Position numbers and translations under genes: made by a program. 64,000 nucleotides of DNA, from positions 30,519 through 94,518 of the forward strand of contig CAYUUX010000002.1 in assembly GCA_964448085.1 (NCBI GenBank), in the 5' to 3' direction. Positions 4,497-34,777 of the stretch are shown here, one piece after another. Origin of the DNA: an uncultured Gammaproteobacteria bacterium (lineage in GTDB: Bacteria; Patescibacteriota; Microgenomatia; UBA10105; UBA927). The notes beneath the pieces are model-generated. The model ran no database searches and was not told where the DNA came from. It worked only from the letters and a program-made list of their open reading frames with translations. Position 1 is the stretch's first letter. Every line of letters starts with the position of its first letter.

Positions 4497-5604
4497 GGCT
4501 TTTCGAACAGAGACTTCTAATCATTTTGCTGGTGACGAGGAGATCTCGAGCGGTGTTTCCTAATCCTGACGGTATATAGAGCCCTTCCTTTTCAACGCGT
4601 TCAGCCACCGGGAAGTTGCTATCTTGGAAGAGCCCCATACCTTTAAACGCTGTTTTTGGAGAGAAAAAAAACGAACGCGTTTGTATTCCTCTTTCCCCAA
4701 GGATTTTCATGAGTTCGGTTTTTGATTTTCCGTATTCTTTTCTTTTTATACGTATTGCATACATCCAGTACACGCTTTTTGCCCACGGTTTTTCAATGGG
4801 CAACACGATTCCCGGAACGCCCCAAAGTTGAACACCATAGGTTTGAGCCAAAAGCCGTTTTTTTTGTATTGATTCATTAATGTGTGACAAGCTAGCAAGA
4901 CCAATGGCCGCCTGAACATTGCTCATTTGATAATTATATCCAATACCATCGTGAACAAAGCGAATTTTTTTGGAATGATAGAGGTTTTTTAAACGAACAA
5001 TTCGTTCATAGATGCTGTGGCTGTTTGTTAGAATCATCCCCCCTTCCCCACAGGTGACAATTTTATTTGCATAGAAACTAAAAATGGATACATCACCGAA
5101 TGATCCAACCCTTCTCCCTTTGTATTCTGCTCCATGTGCTTCAGCAGCGTCCTCAATAATGAAGAGGTGGTGTTTTTTTGCAATACGCACGATTTCATCC
5201 ATGTCGCATGGGTGTCCATAGAGATGTACCGCCATAATTGCTTTTGTATTTTTTGTGATAGACTTCTCTATAAGATCGGGATTTAATGTGTAAGTTTCAG
5301 GATCAATGTCGACTGGTACAACAGTGGCGCCCACGTACCAAACGGCAAAATAACAAGAGGCTATGGTGAGCGCCGGGACAATAACTTCGTCGTTTTTTCC
5401 TATTCCAAGCGCAGCCATTGCCACATGAAGGGCTGCTGTTCCAGAATTGGTTGAAGCACCATACTTTGTTTTTATATAACGTGAAAAAGCCATTTCAAAT
5501 CGTTTTACAAATGGCCCTTCGGCGCTAAGCCAGCCCGAATCAAGCGCTTGATTTGTTAGTGTATACGTTTCTGGATAGATACACGGTTTATTTACTGGGA
5601 TCAT
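4486..5604 (-). CDS. DegT/DnrJ/EryC1/StrS family PLP-dependent sugar aminotransferase
   Basis: 372 aa. HLYGHPCDMDEI...FIIEDAAEAHGAEYKGRRVGSFGD...SFYANKIVTCGEGG is a typical DegT-family core. Confidence 0.85.
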   Translation of the reverse strand: MIPVNKPCIYPETYTLTNQALDSGWLSAEGPFVKRFEMAFSRYIKTKYGASTNSGTAALHVAMAALGIGKNDEVIVPALTIASCYFAVWYVGATVVPVDIDPETYTLNPDLIEKSITKNTKAIMAVHLYGHPCDMDEIVRIAKKHHLFIIEDAAEAHGAEYKGRRVGSFGDVSIFSFYANKIVTCGEGGMILTNSHSIYERIVRLKNLYHSKKIRFVHDGIGYNYQMSNVQAAIGLASLSHINESIQKKRLLAQTYGVQLWGVPGIVLPIEKPWAKSVYWMYAIRIKRKEYGKSKTELMKILGERGIQTRSFFFSPKTAFKGMGLFQDSNFPVAERVEKEGLYIPSGLGNTARDLLVTSKMIRSLCSKSHEA

Positions 5605-6608
5605 ACGACAGATGAAAGTTTAATTACCCTTTCTTGTTTGACTGATCGATAAACCCCCTCAATCATTCGGATTACTGCCGTACCGTCGGACGCACGTGGC
5701 TCTGGCTCCAACCCTTTTTGTATACATGAAGCAAAATATAACAATTCATTCATATAGGATACGGGTTGCCTCTTGGAAAAATCATATATTCTTTCCTTTT
5801 TTGATTCACGGTTGCCCACGATAATATTATCTCCCCGTTTAGAATCTATGAGCATGTATCCTTTCTCACCCCAAATCTCAAGCGACATATACCCTTTCCA
5901 TTGACTCCACGAAGATGTAATGAGAGCCATTCTTCCGTCCTTTGTTTTATATAATCCACCAGCCAAATCTTCAACGTGTGCTTTTTTCCAAAAGACGTTA
6001 CTGATCATCCCTGTGCAGGAATAAAAATCTCCCATAATCCATCGCGTGATGTCTAGCAGGTGGCACGCATTGTCCACATAGGTTCCTCCACCAGATGTGG
6101 CTTTGTCCCAAAACCAGGATTGTTTTGTGTGCGAACCGTCCGTTCCGATGTTTCCCTTTACAGAAAGTACTTTTCCTATTGTGCCCCGTCGAATAAGTTT
6201 AACAGCCTTTTGTATGCTTGGAAAAAAGCGATGATTCGAGCCTGTTTTGACAAATCTTTTAAATCTTTGAGAAGCTCTAACTATTTTGTTTGCTTCAGCA
6301 ACAGTTGGGGCAAGCGGTTTTTCACATAAAACATGCAGCCCGCTTTTTAAAGCCTCGCATGTCACTGGGGCGTGTTGTTTGTTGGGTACGCACACGATGG
6401 CGATATCCGCCGAATATATTTTCAGAAGACTTTTTAGTGATGTTGCATGCGGAACATGAAAGACCTGGCCAGTTTTTTTTGCTTTCTTTTCGTCGACATC
6501 GACAACACCAACAAGTTGTATGTGATGTTTTAATTGTCTGCAGGCCTCTATGCGTTTTTGTCCAAAATAGCCACAACCTACAACGACCGCTCGTAGCTTT
6601 TGATTCAT
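5601..6608 (-). CDS. Gfo/Idh/MocA family oxidoreductase (nucleotide-sugar dehydrogenase-like)
   Basis: N-terminal RAVVVGCGYFGQKR Rossmann motif and EKP motif. Overlaps the downstream aminotransferase by 4 nt, so they are likely a functional pair. Confidence 0.75.
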   Translation of the reverse strand: MNQKLRAVVVGCGYFGQKRIEACRQLKHHIQLVGVVDVDEKKAKKTGQVFHVPHATSLKSLLKIYSADIAIVCVPNKQHAPVTCEALKSGLHVLCEKPLAPTVAEANKIVRASQRFKRFVKTGSNHRFFPSIQKAVKLIRRGTIGKVLSVKGNIGTDGSHTKQSWFWDKATSGGGTYVDNACHLLDITRWIMGDFYSCTGMISNVFWKKAHVEDLAGGLYKTKDGRMALITSSWSQWKGYMSLEIWGEKGYMLIDSKRGDNIIVGNRESKKERIYDFSKRQPVSYMNELLYFASCIQKGLEPEPRASDGTAVIRMIEGVYRSVKQERVIKLSSVV

Positions 6609-8748: not shown

Positions 8749-9471
8749 TCAAATACGGTTTTGCGTATAAAGTCGAATCATGGATTTTGTATTTCCATCA
8801 TGAAGTATTCTTCCTTGCTGCATTATGAGGACACGATTGCAGTTTTTCTCGATGAAGTCTAACGCCTGAGAAGCAATAAGGATGGTTTTTCCTTGACGAA
8901 AAAAATCCTGCATTTTACGTAAAGCTTTTTTTTGAAAGGCTTTATCTCCAACCATAAGGTTTTCATCTAAAAGCAGAATATCAGGCCGTGTCGATGCGGC
9001 AACGGCAAAGCCCAAGCGCAACACCATTCCCGACGAATAGGTAAAAAGTGGAATATCAATAAACTTTCCTATATCTGCAAAATCAATAATTTCTTGTAAT
9101 TTATCGTTAATTTCCCGCCTTTTCATACCAAGAAGCATTCCGTTTAAATATATATTTTGAAGACCGGTTAGGTCGGGGTGAAATCCTGCCTCCAAATCAA
9201 TTAACGAAACGATTTTTCCGCGCGTTTGTAAAACACCGTCCGTTGGTGTCGTGAGGCGTGCAATAATTTTAAGAAGAGTGGTTTTCCCAGAACCGTTGGG
9301 ACCGATAATGCCAATTTTTTCTCCCTTCTGGATCGTAACATTAATATGTTTTAGTGCAATAAAGGTTTCATTTTTTGCATGAATGAGTTTTTCCACAAAC
9401 GTTGGTTTTTCATGGTGAATCGTGTATCGTTTTGAAACGTCGTCTAATTGAACAACAATGTTATTAATCAT
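8749..9471 (-). CDS. ABC transporter ATP-binding protein, polysaccharide/teichoic-acid export type (Wzt/TagH-like)
   Basis: Walker A GIIGPNGSGKTT, ABC signature YSSGM, Walker B ILLLDE. Start trimmed to MINNIVVQLDD so it does not overlap the permease. Confidence 0.85.
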   Translation of the reverse strand: MINNIVVQLDDVSKRYTIHHEKPTFVEKLIHAKNETFIALKHINVTIQKGEKIGIIGPNGSGKTTLLKIIARLTTPTDGVLQTRGKIVSLIDLEAGFHPDLTGLQNIYLNGMLLGMKRREINDKLQEIIDFADIGKFIDIPLFTYSSGMVLRLGFAVAASTRPDILLLDENLMVGDKAFQKKALRKMQDFFRQGKTILIASQALDFIEKNCNRVLIMQQGRILHDGNTKSMIRLYTQNRI

Positions 9472-9475
9472 GGTA

Positions 9476-10243
9476 TTAAAGCCAGTCGTCAAAAAAGTTG
9501 CTTTGTTTTTGAAAAGTCCATATGCCAACTCCGATCGTAAGCGCTGTGGAAAGTACGTTGGAAAGGATCATCCAGACGTCGGGAGGATTTATGTCAATAA
9601 AGGCGTGTTGGAACAATTGAATAATAGCGGTCATGGGGTTCAATCTCCAGAGCCAAACCAGATGATCAGGAATATTCTTAAAAGAATATACAATCGGTGT
9701 TGCATAGAACCATACGGTAAGTAAGGCTTGCACAAAAAAATTTACGTCTCGATAACGAACGTTTAGCGCTGAGGTCAACAGCGATAATCCGGAGGTAAAT
9801 ATGAGAATAAGCACACAAGCAAGTGCCAATGTTGGAACGCGCACTGCCTGAATAAATCCAAAAGGAAGAGAACAGAGAACAAACAGCGTTAACGCAACCA
9901 GAAGATGTATGCAATTTGACAGCACAATAGATAGGGGTATAACTGATCGAGGAAACGCTGATTTTTTAATGAGCGCGCGTTCAAAAACGACACTTGGGGT
10001 TGCTTTCGTCAGTGAAACAGAAAAAAAATTCCACGCCAACAAACCGATAAACAGATATGCGTAATAATGATCAATGGGATTTTTGACAAAAAAGTTAAAG
10101 ACGAAGCCAATAACAAGCATTTGTATAATGGGGTTGACCACAAGCCAGAAAAACCCGAAAATCGTGTACTTATATCTTGCGCGGAGCTCTTTTTCCGTCA
10201 TTGCAGCTAACAGTTCAACGAATCGACCTACATTCTGTCTCAT
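9476..10243 (-). CDS. ABC-2 type transporter permease (Wzm-like)
   Basis: Six predicted TM helices. N-terminal ELRARYK motif typical of ABC-2 permeases. Start trimmed to an internal Met to avoid overlap with the next gene. Confidence 0.7.
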   Translation of the reverse strand: MRQNVGRFVELLAAMTEKELRARYKYTIFGFFWLVVNPIIQMLVIGFVFNFFVKNPIDHYYAYLFIGLLAWNFFSVSLTKATPSVVFERALIKKSAFPRSVIPLSIVLSNCIHLLVALTLFVLCSLPFGFIQAVRVPTLALACVLILIFTSGLSLLTSALNVRYRDVNFFVQALLTVWFYATPIVYSFKNIPDHLVWLWRLNPMTAIIQLFQHAFIDINPPDVWMILSNVLSTALTIGVGIWTFQKQSNFFDDWL

Positions 10244-15134: not shown

Positions 15135-16052
15135 TTGACAGAGCGCCATGGGAACGGTATTGTCTTTGCTATGCGCATTCCACACCATGTATTTGCCCCT
15201 TCTACTTCTGGTTATCCCATCATTGGTTTTCAATCGAAAGAAACACGTGCGCTTACCGTGGGGTATATTCATAAACGGGGGAAAAAGGAAACGTTTATTC
15301 CCTGTCGGGAGCATTTTGGAGCCCTTCGTGAGGAGGACGCGTTTTCGGCAACCGTACAATCGTTATCCCTTTCTCCCATTCAAAAAATGTTACACGCTCA
15401 CGATCCCTATACCATCTCGACCATAACTATTTTACGGGAAACGGTTGCGTGTCGGCTTTCAAGTGCGCTTTTTTATGCAGGTATACCCGCGCACTACGGG
15501 GACTGTTTTATTGGAGCAAATCATGTTAAGTCTGCAACAAGCATCACAACATCATATGCGTATGAAAATACTGAAGGATTGTGCACAGATGGGTGTTGGG
15601 TTATTGCTGATAGCATTGCCTCGGGCAAAAATTTAATAGCCACCCTTCGTTCTTTATTAGGAAAATATCATCCCAAAGAACTTATTTTTATTGTTCCCAT
15701 CGGTAATCGGTGGGGCATTAATGAAGTCAGTAGGGTTGTTGCAGACTATTCCGTACCCACTACGTTTGTTGTTTGGGGAGCGTTGTTTGGTTTAAATCCG
15801 GAAAATCACTACGACGAACCATGGGGGCTTCCAGACTGTGAACCTATTGATAAACGAGACCAACAAACGTTTGTTTCTATGTATTCTCCAACCCTATGTG
15901 TTGGTGGAGATTTTGGTAACGATTACTATTGTGTGGCGTTGGCAAAGAACTTATATAAAAAACAACTTGCAGATCTGCATATAACACCCAACATTCCCAC
16001 CGCAAAATTTATCCGATCGGTATACGCTTCAGAAGAAATCCTCACACGATAA
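15135..16052 (+). CDS. hypothetical protein with a possible phosphoribosyltransferase-like (PRTase) fold
   Basis: 305 aa with no clear family. The segment CWVIADSIASGKNLIATL resembles the PRPP-binding loop pattern (hydrophobic-D-x-hydrophobic-x-S/T-G) of type I PRTases. This is inference only. Confidence 0.3.
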   Translation: MTERHGNGIVFAMRIPHHVFAPSTSGYPIIGFQSKETRALTVGYIHKRGKKETFIPCREHFGALREEDAFSATVQSLSLSPIQKMLHAHDPYTISTITILRETVACRLSSALFYAGIPAHYGDCFIGANHVKSATSITTSYAYENTEGLCTDGCWVIADSIASGKNLIATLRSLLGKYHPKELIFIVPIGNRWGINEVSRVVADYSVPTTFVVWGALFGLNPENHYDEPWGLPDCEPIDKRDQQTFVSMYSPTLCVGGDFGNDYYCVALAKNLYKKQLADLHITPNIPTAKFIRSVYASEEILTR

Positions 16053-16056
16053 GCCG

Positions 16057-17454
16057 TTATCGGCTTTGGGATCCTAGAGGAAAGGTGTTTGTTTCAATAA
16101 ACAGTGGCCTTCCTTCTGTGTCGTCTACTGCCACTATCATTCCCTGAGATTCTTCTCCCATTATTTTTCTATATTGCAAATTGAAAACAAAGAGAAATTT
16201 TTTGCCGGTGAAATACTCTGCGGCATACCCAAACTGTCTGACTCCAGTGAATATGATCCGTTTTCCTAATTCCCCAAAATTAACATGGAGCCGGATCAAT
16301 TTTTCACTTTTCTCAACGTGTTCTGCTGATTCAACTTGCCCAACCCGCATTTCCACGTTGTACCAATCGTCAATTGTGATGGTTGTTTTTTTACTTGTAG
16401 GAACGGAGTAGGCATTAGTTATACCTGTCAAATTTTTAACCTCTTGTAACGTTGATTCTGCATATCTCATGGCTTGTTCTTTCCCACGAGAAAGAATCTC
16501 CTTTATATATTCGGGATGCTTCTGCATTTCCTTATATTGTTTTCGTGCCGGTGCAAAATGCTGTAGGAGCGATTGATATAAATATTCCTTTACTTCTATA
16601 TCCGCTATTTCTCCCCTCTTATATGCTTGTTTCATTTGCTGTACCTTTTCCTTATCACCAAAAAATTCCAGATATACAAAAACCATGTTTCCATCAATGT
16701 GACCGGGATCCGTTTTATGAATACGGGTTGGATCTGTATATGTTCCCATCACCTGTTTTTTGATGGTTTCTTCTGTTTCAAAAATGCTAATAATATTGCC
16801 TAAAGACTTACTCATTTTTCGTTTTCCATCGGTACCAAGTATTGTTGCAACGTTTTTTGAAATGAGTGGATCGGATAATTTAAAGCATGATGTGTTGTAG
16901 GTTCGGTTAAACAGTTGTGCAATATCTCTGGCAATTTCGACATGTTGTTTTTGATCTTTTCCTACCGGAACGAGGTCGGGTTTATATAAAAGAATGTCAG
17001 CCGCCATGAGAATTGGATAACTAAATAGACCGACGTTAATAGTATCCTCAGCGGTGTCTTTTTGGAGTTTATCCTTATATGCATGCGCCCGTTTTAACAA
17101 CCCAAGTGGAGTAAAATTATTGAGAATTGTTTGTAGTTCTGAATGGAGCCCCCCGATGTCGGATTGTCTAAAAAAGATAAGTCGATCGAATTCTTCTGGT
17201 TCCAAAAAACCTTTCAAGAGAGCGAGTTCGCTAAGTATCAATGTTTCTGTGTTCCTTTGTAATTTATCTTTATTCTGAACAGTTGTCAGTGCGTGATAGT
17301 CAGCCACAAAAAGAAAGCACTCATGTGTGTGTGCCATGTCAATAAATTGTTTGACTGCTCCTAGGTAGTTGCCGATATGGAGAGTGCCATCACCACTTGG
17401 TGTTATACCAGATAAAACTCGTTTCATAGTTATTCCTTTCATATATTGTATCAT
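16057..17454 (-). CDS. trpS: tryptophanyl-tRNA synthetase with C-terminal Trbp111/EMAPII-like tRNA-binding domain
   Basis: Class I core with TPSGDGTLHIGNYLGA (HIGH-type) and KMSKSLGN. About 110 extra C-terminal residues (VGQVESAEHV...LIRLHVNFGE...ESQGMIVAV) match the Myf/Trbp111 OB-fold tRNA-binding domain. Confidence 0.8.
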   Translation of the reverse strand: MIQYMKGITMKRVLSGITPSGDGTLHIGNYLGAVKQFIDMAHTHECFLFVADYHALTTVQNKDKLQRNTETLILSELALLKGFLEPEEFDRLIFFRQSDIGGLHSELQTILNNFTPLGLLKRAHAYKDKLQKDTAEDTINVGLFSYPILMAADILLYKPDLVPVGKDQKQHVEIARDIAQLFNRTYNTSCFKLSDPLISKNVATILGTDGKRKMSKSLGNIISIFETEETIKKQVMGTYTDPTRIHKTDPGHIDGNMVFVYLEFFGDKEKVQQMKQAYKRGEIADIEVKEYLYQSLLQHFAPARKQYKEMQKHPEYIKEILSRGKEQAMRYAESTLQEVKNLTGITNAYSVPTSKKTTITIDDWYNVEMRVGQVESAEHVEKSEKLIRLHVNFGELGKRIIFTGVRQFGYAAEYFTGKKFLFVFNLQYRKIMGEESQGMIVAVDDTEGRPLFIETNTFPLGSQSR

Positions 17455-17492
17455 TTGTATTTTTTCTATAGATATGTTTGTTTTATCTTCTG

Positions 17493-18839
17493 CTATTGCA
17501 ATGAACCGTTCAAAAATTTTTCATACCCTCCGAGATCTAGCAAACCGTGTCCGGACAGATTAAAACAAATTACCTTTTTGTTCCCTTGCTTTCGAGCGCG
17601 AATAGCTTCATCAATTACTGCCTTGATCGCGTGTGCACTTTCTGGAGCCGGAATTATTCCCTCTGCTTTCATAAAACAATGCGCGGCTTCAAAAATTTCT
17701 TTTTGAGAATACGCACGAGCACGCGTAATTCCACGCGTGTTTAAGAATGACAAAATTGGTGCATTTCCATGGTATCGCAGCCCCCCAGCGTGAATTACGG
17801 CAGGAATGAACGATGCGCCCAGCGTCTGCATTTTAAGCAGCGGCGTTTGTTTTGCCGCGTCACCAAAATCATATTTGTATTCCCCTTTGGTCATTTTTGG
17901 ACAGGCACTGGATTCAACGAGTATGCAATCAAGACTTGTGCGTTCTCCTGAGATTTTTTTAATAATAAATGGTGCCATAAACCCAAACGCATTGCTTCCT
18001 CCACCAACACACCCAATCAACACATCTGGATATTCTCCAAGGTGTTTAAATTGTTCTTCTACCTCCTGTCCAATAATGGTTTGATGCATGAGTACGTGAT
18101 TTAATACGCTTCCCAAAGCATAACGTGCTGTTTTGTCGTCCCGAATTGTTTCCAGGGCCTCAGCTATGGCGATCCCAAGGCTTCCGGGATGCTGCGGACG
18201 TTCGTTTAACAGATGTTTTCCGAATGCCGTTTGATTTGAAGGACTTGCAAATACGTTTGCACCAAACAACTGCATGATCGTTTTTCTATACGGTTTTTGT
18301 TCATAGGAAGAACGGACCATAAATATGGAGCACCGTACATCAAAAAATTTACATGCTAGTGCTAACGCTGACCCCCATTGACCAGCGCCAGTTTCCGTAA
18401 TGAGTCGTTTAACACCTTCTTGTTTGTTGTAATACGCTTGAGGAATTGCCGTATTGATCTTATGGCTTCCAGAGATGGTTGCGCCTTCATTTTTAAAATA
18501 GATATGCGCAGGGGTTTGGAGCACCTGTTCCAGACGGGTTGCACGGACAAGTGGCGTTGGTCGAAATGTCATATAGATGTTTCTGACTGCATTGGGAATT
18601 TCAACTTTTTCCTCAAGCGTTAATTCTTGTTTAGCGATTTCCTTTGGGAAAAGCCCACACAGATCCTTCATGGTTATGGGTTTGTTTGTTGCCGGATTGA
18701 GATGCGGATCTGGCAAACTCCCCACATATTTTTTGAGGTAATAGTTTATATTGAGATAGTGTGTTGGTGTTTGCACCGAACATTGATTTCCTTTTGTCAT
18801 AGTAGATCCTTTATAAAAATTTTTTGTACACATTGACAT
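17493..18839 (-). CDS. trpB: tryptophan synthase beta chain-like protein, TrpB2 (long) type
   Basis: 448 aa. PLP lysine motif ISGSHKINTAI and GCVGGGSNAFGFMAPF. The length fits the archaeal-like TrpB2 subfamily. No trpA is adjacent. Confidence 0.75.
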   Translation of the reverse strand: MSMCTKNFYKGSTMTKGNQCSVQTPTHYLNINYYLKKYVGSLPDPHLNPATNKPITMKDLCGLFPKEIAKQELTLEEKVEIPNAVRNIYMTFRPTPLVRATRLEQVLQTPAHIYFKNEGATISGSHKINTAIPQAYYNKQEGVKRLITETGAGQWGSALALACKFFDVRCSIFMVRSSYEQKPYRKTIMQLFGANVFASPSNQTAFGKHLLNERPQHPGSLGIAIAEALETIRDDKTARYALGSVLNHVLMHQTIIGQEVEEQFKHLGEYPDVLIGCVGGGSNAFGFMAPFIIKKISGERTSLDCILVESSACPKMTKGEYKYDFGDAAKQTPLLKMQTLGASFIPAVIHAGGLRYHGNAPILSFLNTRGITRARAYSQKEIFEAAHCFMKAEGIIPAPESAHAIKAVIDEAIRARKQGNKKVICFNLSGHGLLDLGGYEKFLNGSLQ

Positions 18840-18892
18840 ATGACTGTTTTTGCCAGTATTTCCCCCTTGTCATACTTTGTTGATAGTTCATA

Positions 18893-18965
18893 GGCAGGAG
18901 CATCAGGATTTGAACCTGAAATGAGGATTTTGGAGATCCCCGTGATACCGTTTCACTATGCTCCT
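18893..18965 (-). tRNA. tRNA-Trp (anticodon CCA)
   Basis: Hand-folded cloverleaf on the minus strand: 7-bp acceptor AGGAGCA/TGCTCCT, D-loop with GG, anticodon loop CTCCAAA, T-arm TCAGG-TTCAAAT-CCTGA, discriminator G. CC is encoded, the terminal A is not. Confidence 0.8.
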
Positions 18966-18977
18966 AAACGACAAAAA

Positions 18978-19015
18978 CCCGTACAGAACACCAAGATATT
19001 GTTGTTCTGTACGGG
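18978..19015. terminator. perfect 13-bp stem / 12-nt loop hairpin flanked by A-run and T-run (bidirectional intrinsic-terminator-like)
   Basis: cccgtacagaaca-[ccaagatattgt]-tgttctgtacggg, then cctttattt on plus and tttttgt on minus. Lies 12 nt upstream of the tRNA-Trp 5' end. Confidence 0.5.
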
Positions 19016-19236
19016 CCTTTATTTGAGATTCGGCTGTGCCACCGTACGCTTCCCTTTCGGGACTTTTCTTGACGCACTCCGTTTTTACGACATGCGTTCC
19101 TGACTTTTACGGTTTCGGCTCCGTACCTGATTGGGGTCAGCTTCCCGGTTCCATCCTTCCGGATCAGCGCTTTCTAAACATACATAGTATACCATACGCT
19201 GTCCAGCGGTAGAGCTATAGTAGGAAACTATTGTTA

Positions 19237-27545: not shown

Positions 27546-27563
27546 GCAGTATCGTTGTATATG

Positions 27564-27633
27564 TTGCGGGGCCAGGAATCGCACCTGGTCTAGAAGATTA
27601 TGAGCCTTCTGTGCAACTTTACACTACCCCGCG
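27564..27633 (-). tRNA. tRNA with CAT anticodon (Met/fMet/Ile2), atypical architecture
   Basis: Minus-strand cloverleaf: acceptor CGCGGGG/CCCCGC with a C1-A72 mismatch, anticodon arm GAAGG-CTCATAA-TCTTC (U33, A37), T-arm CCAGG-TGCGATT-CCTGG. Only 70 nt. The D-loop AAAGTT lacks G18G19. CCA is not encoded. Confidence 0.55.
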
Positions 27634-28209: not shown

Positions 28210-28284
28210 TGGTGCCAGCGGCGGGATTCGGACCTGCGACCCACGCCTTATGAAGACGCTGCTCTACCACTGAGCTACGCTGGC
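28210..28284 (-). tRNA. tRNA-Met (anticodon CAT), canonical elongator-type
   Basis: Acceptor GCCAGCG/CGCTGGC, D-arm GCTC-AGTGGTA-GAGC, anticodon loop TTCATAA, T-arm GCAGG-TTCGAAT-CCTGC, discriminator A, CCA encoded. Confidence 0.85.
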
Positions 28285-29680: not shown

Positions 29681-29932
29681 ACAATTCTTCTTGTCTCTTC
29701 CGATCATTTTAGACTACAATACACTGTATGAGTTGCGAAAAATCAGGCAACCCTGAAGATTCTCAACGTTTCTACCAAGAGTTGCGAAAAGAAGAAAGAC
29801 TTTATCCGTGGGGTGAGCCGCAAACTCATATTTCTGGACGCCCGCATCACCTCGCGTTTCCGCAATGGGCTGGTGAATTGCAGCGTTCGTACGGTGCACA
29901 CAGAAGGGGTCCAACGCGAAGATGAGGAATAT

Positions 29933-32182
29933 ATGGAAAAAACATATTCAGCAAAACACGTAGAGCAGGATATCTACCGCATGTGGGAGGAAGGCGGTTA
30001 TTTTACCCCAACAATTGATCCATCAAAAAAACCTTTTACGATCCTTCTCCCCCTTCCGAACGCAAATGATCCCATGCATATGGGCCACGCAATGTTCACG
30101 GTTCAGGACATTCTTGTCCGATACCATAGAATGAAGGGAGACCCGACCTTGTGGCTTCCCGGCGGGGATCATGCGGGTATAGAAACCCAATTCGTTTTTG
30201 AAAAAAAACTGGCAAAAGAAGGAAAAAGCAGATTCGATTTTGATCGTGACACCCTGTACAAAATGATTGCAGAGTTTGTCGACGAAAATAAAACCATCAA
30301 TCGTGATCAAATGAAACGATTGGGATTTTCACTCGACTGGACTAGGTACCATTATAGTTTGGAGCCAAATATCATTGCGTTTGTTCTGGATACTTTTCGA
30401 AAACTCCACGACGACCATCTTTTGTATCGGGATGAAAAGCTCGTCAATTACTGTACTAAATGTGGTACCAGTTTTTCCGATCTTGAAGTTAAACACGTTG
30501 AAAAAATTGATAAGCTGTACTACATGAAGTACGGTCCTTTTGTTTTGGCAACGACTCGGCCGGAAACAAAATTCGGTGATACGGGAGTTGCTGTGCATCC
30601 AAAAGATAAACGGTACGTACGCTATATTGGGAAAGAAATAGAATTTGAGGGATTGAACGGCACCGTGAAAATGCGCGTCGTCGGCGACGAGGCGGTTGAT
30701 CCGACATTTGGTACGGGAGTTGTTAAAGTCACACCTGCTCATGACATGACGGATTGGGAAATCGGTCAGCGCCACAAACTCCCCATGAAACAAGTGATTG
30801 GTTTTGACGGCAAATTAACCGCAGATACCGGCCCATATGTAGGACTACGAGTAAAAGCGGCAAGAGAAAAAGTGGTGCAAGATCTGCAGGAACGCGGTTT
30901 GATTGACCATATTGACGATGCGTATGTGCATACCGTCGGAACCTGTTACAAATGTGGTTCTGTGTTGGAGCCCCTTCCACTTCCCCAGTGGTTTGTGAAG
31001 ACAAAACCACTGGCAGAGCAAGCAATTGCGGCCGTGAAAGAGGGAAAGACGAAGGTTGTTCCTCTGGCGCGATTTGAAAAATTATATTTTGATTGGCTTG
31101 AGGGTATCCATGACTGGAATATCAGTCGACAAATTGTATGGGGTCCTCGCATACCCGTGTGGTATTGTGCTGATTGTACACCCACGCTTTCGATTACGTT
31201 CATTGATGCGTCGGGTAAGAAGATAAGTGGGATGATTTCCGATCTTCTTGGCACATATACCCTTGATGATATACGAAAAGGGTTGCAATCGGTGGTTGCG
31301 CCCATCAGTGCAACATATACACTGGATAACACGCAGTGTTCAACATGTCATGGCTCGCATTTGATTCAAGAAACTGACACATTTGATACGTGGTTTTTGT
31401 CCGGACAATGGCCTCTGACAACACTTGGATGTCCCGATAGTAAAGATTTTACCTACTTTTATCCAACAACGGTTTTGGATACTATGTGGGACATTCTTTT
31501 CTTTTGGGTTGCACGCATGATGATGTTTGGATTGTACAGAACAGGGAACGTTCCGTTTGAAGTCATACACCTGCACAGTCGTGTCGTTGACAATAAAGGT
31601 CAAAAAATGAGCAAAAGTAAAGGGAACGTTGTGAATCCTTTGGACATGGTCGATACGTACGGTGCAGACGCGCTCCGGATGGCATTAATTTTTGGTTCTG
31701 CACCAGGCAGTGACATTGTTATGTCCGAAGACAAAGTTCGCGGTATGCGAAATTTTGCGAATAAACTTTGGAACATTACACGTTTGTTTACCATGAGCAC
31801 AGAAGGTATGAGCGAGCAGCTTCCCGTTATTGCTTCCCCTGACGATGCGAACCTGACAGATGCCGACAAAAAAATACTCCAAACGCTCAACAGTGTTATA
31901 ACTGACACAACGAGTTCTATTGAGCGGTATCGCCTTTCTGATGCAGCACAACTTCTGTACGACTTTCTGTGGCATACATTTGCAGATGTGTATCTTGAAG
32001 AAAATAAAAACAGGTATAAAGAAAAAGATACATATGCGCTTGCAGTATATCGCCATGTTTTGCTTGCAAGCCTTGCGCTTTTGCATCCGTTCATGCCGTT
32101 TGTAACGGAGCACTGTTATCAACAGTTGCAACACGCCACAAAAACACCTCTTATTACCGCCCCGTGGCCACAAGCACTCTAA
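29933..32182 (+). CDS. valS: valyl-tRNA synthetase
   Basis: PLPNANDPMHMGHA (HIGH), LPGGDHAGIETQ and KMSKSKGN. The ORF-track start at 29813 is trimmed to MEKTYSAKHVEQDIY (29933), which has a GAGGA ribosome-binding site 8 nt upstream. Confidence 0.9.
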   Translation: MEKTYSAKHVEQDIYRMWEEGGYFTPTIDPSKKPFTILLPLPNANDPMHMGHAMFTVQDILVRYHRMKGDPTLWLPGGDHAGIETQFVFEKKLAKEGKSRFDFDRDTLYKMIAEFVDENKTINRDQMKRLGFSLDWTRYHYSLEPNIIAFVLDTFRKLHDDHLLYRDEKLVNYCTKCGTSFSDLEVKHVEKIDKLYYMKYGPFVLATTRPETKFGDTGVAVHPKDKRYVRYIGKEIEFEGLNGTVKMRVVGDEAVDPTFGTGVVKVTPAHDMTDWEIGQRHKLPMKQVIGFDGKLTADTGPYVGLRVKAAREKVVQDLQERGLIDHIDDAYVHTVGTCYKCGSVLEPLPLPQWFVKTKPLAEQAIAAVKEGKTKVVPLARFEKLYFDWLEGIHDWNISRQIVWGPRIPVWYCADCTPTLSITFIDASGKKISGMISDLLGTYTLDDIRKGLQSVVAPISATYTLDNTQCSTCHGSHLIQETDTFDTWFLSGQWPLTTLGCPDSKDFTYFYPTTVLDTMWDILFFWVARMMMFGLYRTGNVPFEVIHLHSRVVDNKGQKMSKSKGNVVNPLDMVDTYGADALRMALIFGSAPGSDIVMSEDKVRGMRNFANKLWNITRLFTMSTEGMSEQLPVIASPDDANLTDADKKILQTLNSVITDTTSSIERYRLSDAAQLLYDFLWHTFADVYLEENKNRYKEKDTYALAVYRHVLLASLALLHPFMPFVTEHCYQQLQHATKTPLITAPWPQAL

Positions 32183-33150: not shown

Positions 33151-33714
33151 TCACGCGCGCTCAACATAACTTCCGGTTTCCGGATCTATTGCAATACGTT
33201 CCCCTTGTTTGATAAACAAAGGGACGGTGACAACGGCACCCGTTTCTACAACAACAGTCTTTGTTGCTCCTGATACGGTATTGCCCCGTGCGCCGTCGGT
33301 TGCCTCAGTAACCAACAGGCGTACTTTTTTGGGAAGCCGGATACCAATAGCTTCTTCTTCATGAATCAGCACCTGGTATGTGTCGTTGGGTTTGAGATAT
33401 TTAACAAAATCCCCCAACAATACTCCTGGTACAGTCACCTGATCGAATGATACATTATCCATGAAAACGAACCCCTCACCTTCCGGATATAAATACTGCA
33501 TTTCGTGCGTTTCAACCGGAAGCTCCTCGACAGATTCCCCGGATTTATAGGTAAATTCCTGAACTTTGCCCGTTTTGAGTGATTTGAGTCTGGTTCGTAC
33601 AAACGCAGAACCCTTTCCCGGATTTACGTGTTGGAACTCCACGATTTGATGGGGTTCATCCTTAAATGTGACAAATAACCCCTTTTTGAATTCTGATGTA
33701 GAGATGATAGACAT
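33151..33714 (-). CDS. efp: elongation factor P
   Basis: MSIISTSEFKKG...NPGKGSAFVRTRLKSLKTGK with the conserved Lys in the PGKG loop. ORF-track start trimmed to the internal Met. Confidence 0.9.
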   Translation of the reverse strand: MSIISTSEFKKGLFVTFKDEPHQIVEFQHVNPGKGSAFVRTRLKSLKTGKVQEFTYKSGESVEELPVETHEMQYLYPEGEGFVFMDNVSFDQVTVPGVLLGDFVKYLKPNDTYQVLIHEEEAIGIRLPKKVRLLVTEATDGARGNTVSGATKTVVVETGAVVTVPLFIKQGERIAIDPETGSYVERA

Positions 33715-33739
33715 GGAAGGTATTATCGCACGAAGCGGA

Positions 33740-34777
33740 TCACTTTTCAAACAGATCTTTTGGTGGAAAAAATGTCGTATCGTTAATATCCCTCGTATTT
33801 GCAAAGAGCATGCACAACCGGTCGATTCCCAATGCAATGCCGCTTGTCTCCGGCATCCCTACTCGAAGCGCTTCAATAAAATCATGATCATATTCATACA
33901 TGGTGTGACCTTTTTTTTGAATTTCTCGCATTTCTTTTTCAAACCGGCTTTTCTGTTCTTGCCAGTCAGTCAATTCTTCGTAGCAATCCGCAAGTTCAAG
34001 ACCCTCAATATAAAGCTCAAAGCGCCTTGCAAAACGTGGATCGTTTACGTCTTTTTTCGCAAGTGCTGCGATAGACGATGGGAATCCATAGAGGATCGTG
34101 GGATGGTTTTTCCCAATGTGTGGTTCAATCTCATTGAGAAAGATCTGATTATACAGTTCTTCCCATGTGGTGTTTGGCATGATTGTATATCCTTTTGCTT
34201 TTGCAAGCTTTTTTGCTTGCCGTATTGAAAAAAACGTATGGAGGTCGATATGTGCATAGCGTTGAAACGCTTCAGCTACAGAAATTCGTTCCCATTTTTT
34301 ATTCAGGTCGCAGACATGGTGTTGGTATTGAAACTTTCCGCTTATCCCCAGGGAGGATGCGATTGACAGAAGGAGGTCTTGGCAATCCTTCATGATACGC
34401 TCGTATGCGTCTCCTACTCTATACCATTCCAGAATCGTAAATTCCGGAAGATGAGATTCGCTTTGATTTTCCGTATTGCGGAAGCTTTTGGTTATCGAAT
34501 AACAATTGCCGATGCCCGCAACAATGAGTTTTTTTAGCGCCAATTCCGGGGATGTTGAAAGGTATGCACGCGTTTTGTTCCTTTGCCTATCCAAAAGATC
34601 CGTTTCAAACACTTCAAGGTATGATTCCGCAGCGGGATAGCGGATAAGCATGGGGGTTTCAACCTCGTGAAATCGTCTGGTTTCAAAAAAAGAACGTATG
34701 GCTGTAATTACTTTTTCGCGAAGAAAATACTTGTCCCAGAGAGCGGGCGTGTTTTTCAGTTTTTGCCAGGTTTTCAT
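33740..34777 (-). CDS. epmA: EF-P lysine-lysyltransferase EpmA (GenX/PoxA; truncated class II LysRS paralog)
   Basis: 345 aa. Class II motifs: motif 1 FFETRRFHEVETPML, motif 2 FRNTENQSESHLPEFTILEWY, motif 3 GIALGIDRL. No anticodon-binding domain. Adjacent to efp. Confidence 0.7.
   Translation of the reverse strand: MKTWQKLKNTPALWDKYFLREKVITAIRSFFETRRFHEVETPMLIRYPAAESYLEVFETDLLDRQRNKTRAYLSTSPELALKKLIVAGIGNCYSITKSFRNTENQSESHLPEFTILEWYRVGDAYERIMKDCQDLLLSIASSLGISGKFQYQHHVCDLNKKWERISVAEAFQRYAHIDLHTFFSIRQAKKLAKAKGYTIMPNTTWEELYNQIFLNEIEPHIGKNHPTILYGFPSSIAALAKKDVNDPRFARRFELYIEGLELADCYEELTDWQEQKSRFEKEMREIQKKGHTMYEYDHDFIEALRVGMPETSGIALGIDRLCMLFANTRDINDTTFFPPKDLFEK

Follow-up and report, generated by a model that had tools for sequence, protein, structure and literature searches.

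A Trp T-box-type leader RNA ahead of a tRNA-Trp, trpB2 and trpS gene cluster in a patescibacterial genome

A 64,000-nt stretch of contig CAYUUX010000002.1 (assembly GCA_964448085.1, positions 30,519 to 94,518; GTDB lineage Patescibacteriota, Microgenomatia), here termed the window, carries a cluster in which a T-box-type leader RNA stands ahead of genes for tRNA-Trp, a tryptophan synthase beta-like enzyme (trpB2) and tryptophanyl-tRNA synthetase (TrpRS; trpS). All features of the cluster lie on the minus strand and comprise, in transcription order, the leader (18966-19176, 211 nt as a whole element, recognised by homology, the covariance model R1 described below and a fold z-score); tRNA-Trp(CCA) (18893-18965, found by ARAGORN and by Rfam, tRNA family 60.1 bits); a micro-open reading frame (micro-ORF, 18811-18891); trpB2 (17493-18800, 435 aa, a TrpB2-class pyridoxal phosphate (PLP)-dependent enzyme); and trpS (16057-17427, 456 aa, bacterial type). 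Both the gene content and the nearest named relatives (Gottesmanbacteria, at 71% identity) indicate a patescibacterial genome. A first-pass annotation, made from the sequence alone, had described a co-directional three-gene unit, and this unit stands, with the same order kept in five further diverged loci of the Candidate Phyla Radiation (CPR); the leader (19176-18966) and the micro-ORF (18891-18811) had been overlooked.

The spacing of the genes depends on which start codons are used. The gaps of 53 and 38 nt originally given are reproduced from the longest ORFs (448 aa, 17493-18839, for trpB2; 465 aa, 16057-17454, for trpS), yet the real starts are probably internal, at M14 of TrpB2 (ATG 18800, 435 aa) and M10 of TrpRS (ATG 17427, 456 aa). 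AAAGGA-N7 precedes both internal ATGs, the 435-aa form of TrpB2 is found verbatim in a protein collection (P0001), and 435 and 456 aa are the gene-caller lengths on three sister contigs. Because the internal starts are favoured, the gaps are more likely 92 and 65 nt. No TrpA, IGPS, PRAI, TrpD, TrpE or TrpG family was found by Pfam among essentially all ORFs of at least 150 aa in the window, in agreement with the earlier statement that trpA, trpC, trpD and trpE are not present in these 64 kb.

Homologous leaders were identified at eight loci: the window, and the loci designated L085, L165, L166, L006, L167, L172 and L090. All eight share the same elements in one order: a -10 element, AAAGCnnUGA, a short helix and loop, Stem II, a CGGAGSCGAAACCG hairpin, a hairpin termed X, a variable Stem III, (A/G)GGUGG(C/U)AC, and a terminator. 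Upstream of the window leader a consensus scan and conservation point to a putative extended -10 promoter element, TGGTATACT (19186-19194), and a sigma-70-like pair, TGGACA-17-TATGTT (19205-19177), is a putative alternative. In seven of the eight loci TGnTAyAnT lies 21-28 nt 5' of the AAAGC of the leader, and L167 has TTGACA-17-TATAAT; promoter activity at this position is a prediction from conserved motifs.

Stem I (19144-19175) starts from a kink-turn (K-turn)-like base, AGAAAGCGCUGA (19175-19164), in which AAAGCnnUGA ... GA(A/G)GCU is invariant. Its helix is only 5 bp long (UCCGG/CCGGG, 19163-19159 with 19148-19144), with compensatory changes from CG to GC and AU among the homologues, and it closes a terminal loop of 10 nt containing the specifier UGG (19153-19151) followed by A at 19150. 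This UGG is complementary to the CCA anticodon of the adjoining tRNA-Trp, with a purine next to it. UGG+A is invariant in the six-sequence alignment introduced below and recurs in L172 within GGAUGGAAC; the loop reads GG(A/U)UGGAA in seven of the eight loci, the other being L090, which has UGG+G in a longer, divergent Stem I. The Stem I of L172 is longer and carries the same GGAUGGAAC, which suggests that the short Stem I is a derived form. A middle domain (19072-19137) follows, made up of a short Stem II (19137-19125), a Stem IIA-like hairpin, CGGAGCCGAAACCG (19123-19110), and the lineage-specific hairpin X (19097-19072), which is an insertion relative to the Rfam T-box consensus and shows compensatory changes in four to five of its ten pairs.

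The 3' half of the leader can adopt two alternative structures. In the first, Stem III (19063-19051) is followed by an antiterminator (19009-19063 together with Stem III), in which helix A1 (19047-19042 with 19014-19009) and helix A2 (19034-19032 with 19017-19015) flank a 7-nt bulge opening with the T-box UGGC (19041-19038). In the second, the 3' strands of the antiterminator are taken up by the overlapping 5' arm of an intrinsic terminator hairpin (19015-18978), which is followed by a U-run (18977-18966). The UGGC immediately abuts A1, as UGGN does in all known T-boxes (PMC7583486); the N position holds C in six of the loci and U in the other two, and G73 is present in every adjoining tRNA-Trp. 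C or U opposite G73, with G:U usage, is also found among the Trp T-boxes of TBDB (PMC7778990).

Both structures are conserved. The 270-nt stretch upstream of the tRNA folds better than its shuffles (z = -3.98), and the two forms were assigned by column on an alignment, A3, of six sequences made with MAFFT (window, L165, L085, L166, L006 and L167), with 500 shuffles and partners slid by 1-3 columns as controls. The terminator form pairs in 97.7% of cells with 14 compensatory pairs, and the antiterminator form in 97.9% with ten; none of the 500 shuffles reaches the values of either form, a statistic that overstates the significance because the sample is small and its members are related, and slid partners pair in 19-45% of cells. 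Within these totals, seven of the 13 terminator pairs are compensatory (98.7% of cells paired), while all cells of A1 and A2 are paired and three of the six A1 pairs are compensatory. A1 is GCAAGG/CCUUGC in most loci and GUACGG/CCGUAC in the window and L165, and the 3' arm of the terminator co-varies with it. As A1 and the terminator 3' arm change in step, this amounts to three-way covariation, as expected of a switch. The folding energies are typical of a T-box: for a transcript cut before the terminator 3' arm, the unconstrained minimum free energy (MFE) structure is Stem III plus A1/bulge/A2, at -16.4 kcal/mol, and for the full leader it is the terminator, at -41.8 kcal/mol, compared with -24.1 kcal/mol when the antiterminator is enforced.

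Two covariance models were built, R1 for the 5' core of the leader and R2 for its 3' domain. R1 scores 132.5 bits at 19064-19176, its sole match in the window, and recovers the held-out leaders L172 (77.8 bits) and L090 (28.6 bits); among some 160 other TrpB2 loci it gave one borderline match only (L031, E 0.07). With the held-out loci included, the R1 alignment has 99.5% of cells paired and 12 of 23 pairs compensatory, a count biased by the alignment having been fitted to the model. The Rfam T-box model, RF00230, can be aligned over its whole length (positions 1-219 of the model) with L085, at 30.3 bits and E 4e-5, and with L090, at 23.3 bits and E 3e-3. In L085 this alignment places AGCGAUGA...GGAGC, including the K-turn-like base, on the base of Stem I, while the CGG...CCG hairpin falls on Stem IIA and GGUGGNAC on the antiterminator bulge.

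Several points weigh against a T-box assignment. RF00230 gave no match for the window leader, whether 541 nt were searched at E<=1 or 226 nt at E<=10, nor for the leaders of L165, L166, L167, L006 and L172 in a search of 67 kb; the matches it did give, of 23-30 bits, stand far below the gathering score of 93; and R2, intended to recover canonical T-boxes from the CPR discriminator domain, retrieved leaders from CPR only and no canonical T-boxes, an uninformative outcome. The alignments hold just six to nine related sequences. The distal Stem I platform of interdigitated T-loops is absent, with L085 having 9 nt for 71 consensus positions of the Rfam model, and this elbow-binding platform is considered essential in transcriptional T-boxes (PMC7583486). 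It is also absent from a recognised ultrashort subclass (bioRxiv 10.1101/2023.02.28.530422), and a Stem I of 5 bp with the specifier in its terminal loop and without a platform gives the present leader the same “ultrashort” architecture. Whether hairpin X stands in for the missing elbow contact is speculation. The leader is thus described here as a divergent T-box variant that is predicted to bind tRNA, assigned by its features rather than by an Rfam score. Its intrinsic terminator, together with a tRNA as the first downstream gene, means that sequestration of a Shine-Dalgarno (SD) sequence cannot be the output. Searching the literature in full text turned up no account of a T-box in CPR/Patescibacteria, nor of one placed before a tRNA gene.

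Other descriptions of the leader were considered and set aside. A signal recognition particle (SRP) RNA, suggested by a GGAA-tetraloop motif upstream, had no Rfam support and was dropped once the homologous leaders showed T-box motifs. The “trpB motif” (RF04312), which is a distinct element with two hairpins from Firmicutes and Fusobacteria (PMC11109978), gave a noise-level match only at E<=10, and the remaining Rfam matches were false ones of hairpin type, to miRNA families. RNAalifold also proposed that GCUGACC pairs over a long range with the T-box core GGUGGC; this was not adopted, both sides being invariant and hence without covariation.

A further T-box candidate was found in one of the relatives. 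In L006, a Gottesmanbacteria genome, a second sub-threshold T-box (4544-4699, minus strand; RF00230, 40 bits, E 2e-5) lies directly 5' of a class I aminoacyl-tRNA synthetase (aaRS) of the Ile/Val/Leu type (741 aa), and suggests that T-boxes below the gathering score may be more general in CPR. By analogy, a second T-box was sought in the window before a class I aaRS (29813-32182), and was rejected for lack of a GGUGGNAC motif and of a convincing alignment.

The tRNA-Trp gene that follows the leader encodes A1-U72, G73 and the CC of the 3' end, the final A not being encoded. The terminator stem ends 12 nt before the tRNA in the window, and 5-18 nt before tRNA position +1 in the six loci that have one. 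A consensus scan detected no promoter between terminator and tRNA in the window. In L006 and L167, which lack the tRNA gene, the leader stands directly 5' of protein genes, indicating that its output is downstream transcription. Control of the tRNA gene by read-through is accordingly the most likely reading, and one we consider reasonably probable. It carries a difficulty of its own: a tRNA gene placed behind a switch that needs the same tRNA poses a bootstrapping problem, unless there is basal read-through or a second copy.

An alternative accepts the T-box as genuine and holds that the tRNA gene is a passenger expressed from a promoter of its own (in the terminator loop, for instance), or that trpB2 and trpS are served by a promoter in the tRNA-trpB2 spacer, such that the riboswitch does not govern the gene of its ligand. 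The AT-rich terminator loops of several loci do contain -10-like hexamers (TATTAT in L166 and L172, AATAAT in L090, CAATAT/TATCTT in the window), which would make an internal tRNA promoter possible; the tRNA-TrpB2 spacers are AT-rich and range from 92 to ~530 nt; and the presence of the tRNA is variable, as the two loci without it attest. However, a promoter inside the terminator would make trpB2-trpS constitutive and the conserved T-box pointless, no terminator separates tRNA and trpB2 in the window, and the short distance from terminator to tRNA is maintained in six diverged lineages. Moreover, five of the six tRNA-bearing loci place an ATG exactly 3 nt beyond the discriminator, which suggests a processed polycistronic precursor. 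On balance the passenger tRNA is an unlikely explanation.

The micro-ORF itself encodes a putative leader peptide of 26 codons, MNYQQSMTRGKYWQKQSYVNVYKKFL followed by a stop, with a single Trp codon at 18855-18853. Its ATG is the one that stands 3 nt after the tRNA discriminator, G73, and its stop overlaps the ribosome-binding site of TrpB2. Of the eight T-box-type loci, seven have a short ORF immediately 5' of TrpB2 in which (Y/R)-W-(R/Q) is conserved, and the motif G(R/K)EYW(R/Q) is conserved; equivalents are located at L165 5910-5969, L167 5549-5617, L172 4809-4871, L006 9873-9950 and L090 1133-1174. L090 has TGA at the Trp position, with similarity continuing beyond it. Variation at the codon level (GGG/GGA, CGG/AGA/AGG, TAC/TAT) suggests that these short ORFs are translated. 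With one Trp codon, 10 nt from its stop to the trpB2 ATG and no terminator, the micro-ORF of the window is not an attenuator in the classical definition.

The tRNA gene has been remodelled in one relative. In L165 the tRNA-Trp orthologous to that of the window (5664-5905) is interrupted in its anticodon region by an insert of ~190 nt, which holds a second, intact tRNA-Trp(CCA) at 5774-5845. No clean spliced anticodon loop could be derived, and the interrupted copy is perhaps a broken gene whose place the inserted one has taken.

The wider distribution of the arrangement was assessed from the contexts of TrpB2 homologues in GTDB genomes, metagenomes and an exact-protein look-up, the last supplying most of the CPR contexts; a scan of metagenomes with the single protein gave few close relatives among the matches listed. 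The order tRNA-Trp, TrpB2, TrpRS recurs in five mutually diverged loci besides the window (L085, L090, L165, L166 and L172), whose TrpB2 proteins are 58-73% identical to that of the window. Beyond these, 30 of 160 non-self TrpB2 loci have a co-directional TrpRS within the fetched flank. Among GTDB species representatives the linkage is seen in 11 of 80, spread over Gottesmanbacteria, Roizmanbacteria, several Anaerolineae, Dehalococcoidia and Bacillota. Linkage of TrpB2 to TrpRS is not confined to this organism, as the Anaerolineae, Dehalococcoidia and Bacillota examples show. Chance would link a single-copy gene within +/-10 kb in a genome of at least 1 Mb in no more than about 2% of cases, by our own estimate rather than a computation. 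As the recurrence exceeds this estimate, TrpB2-TrpRS linkage constitutes a broad comparative-genomic signal, and our literature search found no paper describing it.

The means by which TrpB2 is controlled also recur. In four non-CPR loci (L054, L060, L108 and L122) the TrpB2/TrpRS operon stands behind a canonical T-box that exceeds the Rfam gathering score, and canonical T-box sequences lie directly 5' of TrpB2 in L035 and L055. Among the CPR-type loci without a T-box, nine of ten have Trp-rich leader peptides, such as MKNLNNNWWTNFLW and MKNKIFSNNWWIDSLW, each ending at a stop, in which the Trp codons are often tandem (WW). Leader ORFs of this kind were mapped at L005 9785-, L086 1641-, L089 5848-, L168 5855-, L173 4860-, L174 3772-, L175 3865- and L171 3586-, and a hairpin with a U-run follows the peptide in the five loci inspected (L005, L086, L089, L168 and L174), so that these loci look like cases of classical trp-type attenuation in Patescibacteria. 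In addition, protein look-up retrieved seven CPR-type loci with an adjoining gene of the Trp_repressor family (PF01371), often just upstream. Taken together, the leaders indicate a consistent coupling, in this lineage, of TrpB2 expression to the status of Trp-tRNA. The original proposal of an “indole to Trp-tRNA” supply module fits this pattern, with a Trp T-box here and Trp-rich leader peptides or TrpR in relatives; its enzymatic half is a prediction from protein family.

That family is well defined by profile. The 448-aa form scores 638.7 bits against NF009057 (cut-off 366) and 593.9 bits against TIGR01415 (cut-off 518.85), and the TrpB1 model TIGR00263 reaches 159 bits, below its cut-off of 392. 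The closest solved structures are those of Sulfolobus TrpB2 (6HUL_B, 483 bits; 4QYS, 379 bits), with TrpB1 structures at ~120 bits. The PLP-lysine motif is present as SGSHKINTA and does not vary among 28 relatives (alignment positions H113 and K114). By these profiles the product belongs to the TrpB2 class. Neither the window nor the flanks of 11 related CPR loci, annotated with Pfam over +/-4-10 kb, gave a match to the TrpA family. The enzyme had been called a stand-alone TrpB2, and remains one by this evidence.

Serine had been named as its co-substrate; the literature instead reports that TrpB2 prefers O-phospho-L-serine over serine (Busch 2014, as cited in PMC11917138). High indole affinity and dependence on O-phosphoserine are likewise reported in PMC11917138 and PMC2700814, the former also noting that the physiological role of TrpB2 is still under debate. 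An ORF of ~130 aa resembling ParB_N adjoins TrpB2 in many CPR loci (L167 7329-7730, L168 7308-7706, L170 6311-6709, L175 5287-5670, L086 3073-3465, L172 6337-6672, L006 ~9466-9856 and L090 ~735-1136) and in two archaeal ones (L023 11374-11778 and L026 11386-11607). It most closely matches SbnI and the N-terminal half of SerK, a free serine kinase (PDB 5X0B, E 3e-10), and scores 57-68 bits against NCBIfam NF053625, below the cut-off. SerK and SbnI are O-phosphoserine synthases, of which the TrpB2-adjacent ORF is a half-size homologue. Its product may supply O-phosphoserine to TrpB2, and such a neighbour fits the reported reaction of TrpB2 with O-phosphoserine and indole. The 64-kb window contains no SerK-like ORF.

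An objection to indole salvage is that this TrpB2 might not be the Trp synthase of a presumed auxotroph, and could instead partner a TrpA encoded elsewhere, within a complete pathway, or carry out another PLP-dependent beta-substitution or deamination, as in indole detoxification or the synthesis of a different amino acid. The visible genome amounts to 64 kb, the closest structure, 6HUL_B, is presumably the TrpA-associated Sulfolobus TrpB2i, and the debate over TrpB2 physiology noted above (PMC11917138) leaves room for such roles. Against this stand the lack of TrpA in the window and near its relatives, the linkage of TrpB2 to TrpRS, tRNA-Trp and Trp-sensing leaders, and the homologue of an O-phosphoserine kinase, SerK, that adjoins TrpB2 in many relatives, all of which make a role other than salvage improbable.

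The third gene, trpS, scores 271.9 bits against TIGR00233 (cut-off 176.75) and 238.7 bits with the PDB TrpRS 3M5W, and its translation contains the HIGN (TLHIGN) and KMSKS motifs. At its C-terminus is a tRNA-binding domain similar to Trbp111 and MetRS-beta (16084-16350; PF01588 tRNA_bind, 58.4 bits), with matches to PDB 1PYB (Trbp111, 64 bits) and 8VTZ (65.5 bits). Of the TrpRS chains matched in the PDB search, none aligned with this domain: the alignments end near query residue 336, and nearly all of the matched chains have 322-355 residues, with one of 388. The Trbp111-like domain is fused to the C-terminus of TrpRS in the window, L006, L090, L165 and L166, whereas L167 and L174 encode a separate tRNA_bind protein, and in L167 and L173 an N-terminal tRNA_edit (YbaK-like, PF04073) domain is fused to TrpRS (variants at L167 7789-9234 and 9338-9652, L173 7028-8491, and L174 5549-6577 and 7851-8189).

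From these elements a mechanism can be proposed. The 5-bp Stem I would present UGG (+A) in its terminal loop to the CCA anticodon of tRNA-Trp, while the UGGC of the bulge would pair with the free G73-C-C-A end of the uncharged tRNA, stabilising the antiterminator over the much stronger terminator. When charging of tRNA-Trp drops, RNA polymerase would read through into the tRNA-Trp gene, the micro-ORF, trpB2 and trpS. RNase P and 3' processing would release tRNA-Trp from the transcript, TrpB2 would make Trp from scavenged indole and O-phosphoserine or serine, and TrpRS would charge the tRNA. We assign a probability of roughly 0.7 to the reading that promoter, Trp T-box leader, tRNA-Trp, micro-ORF, trpB2 and trpS form a single, co-transcribed unit under this mechanism.

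A stronger version is held more tentatively, at a little short of even odds: that the T-box puts its own ligand's gene under autoregulation, so that uncharged tRNA-Trp opens the expression of tRNA-Trp, the indole-to-Trp enzyme and the synthetase alike, with hairpin X possibly compensating for the missing platform. To the same tentative proposal belongs the suggestion that the mRNA remaining after excision and 3' processing of the tRNA would be almost leaderless and would have as its first ORF that of the conserved Trp-containing peptide, which abuts the trpB2 start. That the leader is some other attenuator (a small-molecule riboswitch or a protein-binding leader), or an independent small RNA ending at the hairpin, is very improbable: the window copy lacks an Rfam T-box match and a distal platform, its conserved hairpin X has no T-box counterpart, and R2 found no canonical T-boxes, but at every locus the loop UGG+A and bulge-edge UGG(C/U) match the anticodon and G73 of the adjoining tRNA, the K-turn-like base, IIA-like hairpin, Stem III and A1/bulge/A2 layout are specific to T-boxes, the Rfam T-box is the sole significant non-tRNA family for L085 and L090, and an aaRS with synthesis of the cognate amino acid downstream is the classical T-box regulon.

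Some neighbouring features deserve brief mention. Group I introns (RF00028) adjoin the Trp locus at L090 59-248 (plus strand, 62.5 bits) and L166 160-378 (minus strand, 69.4 bits), the former inside an apparent tRNA-fMet(CAU) gene and the latter with matching exon sequence on the opposite strand; the tRNA-Met genes of the window (27563-27633 and 28210-28284) are both uninterrupted. Between trpS and ftsH, and antisense to them, lies a 305-aa ORF (15135-16052, plus strand) with no Pfam or NCBIfam match, and a 293-aa ORF in the same position and orientation in L165 suggests that it is a real conserved gene. Farther away (33151-34777, minus strand), a gene for elongation factor P (EF-P, 33151-33837) sits beside a truncated paralogue of a class II Lys/Asp/Asn-type aaRS (33740-34777, 345 aa), and the two resemble the known EF-P / EpmA(PoxA) lysylation pair, apparently an ordinary arrangement.

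T-box riboswitches are the textbook case of an RNA that senses an RNA. If the proposed autoregulation is true, the sensed tRNA is encoded inside the unit that it controls, a feedback architecture not found in the literature searched, and a minimal genome holds a self-contained module of sensor, substrate, synthesis and charging. An ultrashort Stem I combined with a transcription terminator contradicts the generalisation that the platform is dispensable only in translational T-boxes, and offers structural and synthetic studies a new, compact scaffold. It also shows that Rfam gathering scores miss T-boxes in CPR/Patescibacteria, whose gene regulation is largely uncharted. For the enzyme, the ties of TrpB2 to Trp-tRNA-sensing leaders, to TrpRS and to a serine-kinase homologue argue for a physiological supply of Trp from indole, and form the strongest comparative-genomic case so far that TrpB2 serves this purpose, probably with O-phosphoserine. 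This suggests that these episymbiotic bacteria use the indole of neighbouring cells as a nutrient.

Among known systems, the genital strains of Chlamydia trachomatis have likewise kept the last step of the pathway (trpRBA), making Trp from indole of the environment or microbiota under regulation by Trp, according to PMC6302012 and PMC8376405. Chlamydia uses TrpB1 with an allosteric TrpA and a TrpR repressor, whereas the window has a stand-alone TrpB2, RNA-based control, and a coupling to tRNA and synthetase. The stand-alone TrpB2 enzymes of Thermotoga maritima and Sulfolobus solfataricus (PDB 4QYS, 6HTE and 6HUL) belong to the same family, at 379-483 bits to the Sulfolobus structures. These organisms differ in having complete trp operons, and no linkage of their TrpB2 to trpS, tRNA-Trp or a T-box was described in the literature we searched. 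The thrU-tyrU-glyT-thrT-tufB operon of E. coli provides a precedent for tRNAs and a translation-related protein gene under one promoter, the tRNAs being excised from a polycistronic precursor. It differs in having no riboswitch and in encoding neither a synthetase nor a biosynthetic enzyme cognate to its tRNAs.

The closest parallels are the T-boxes themselves. Canonical transcriptional Trp T-boxes, found ahead of trpS and trp genes in Firmicutes and Chloroflexi, follow the same logic of antitermination by uncharged tRNA-Trp, and share with the present leader the regulated genes TrpB2 and TrpRS, the UGG specifier and UGG(C/U) opposite G73 (PMC7778990). Their gene order is T-box, TrpB2, TrpRS in L122, and T-box, TrpRS, TrpB2 in L054 and L060. 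They differ in reaching the Rfam gathering score, at 96-109 bits, in having a long Stem I, and in controlling a unit without a tRNA gene. The ultrashort Stem I T-boxes of Actinobacteria (ileS; Mycobacterium smegmatis and M. tuberculosis) are alike in their short helix, specifier in the terminal loop and lack of an elbow platform, and also in a middle domain of the Stem II/IIA type and a bulge-edge UGGN (bioRxiv 10.1101/2023.02.28.530422; PMC7583486). Those known are all described as translational, acting by SD sequestration, and as specific for Ile and ileS, whereas the leader described here ends in a terminator and U-run, is Trp-specific and belongs to CPR; unlike them, it has in addition the conserved hairpin X and a tRNA gene downstream.

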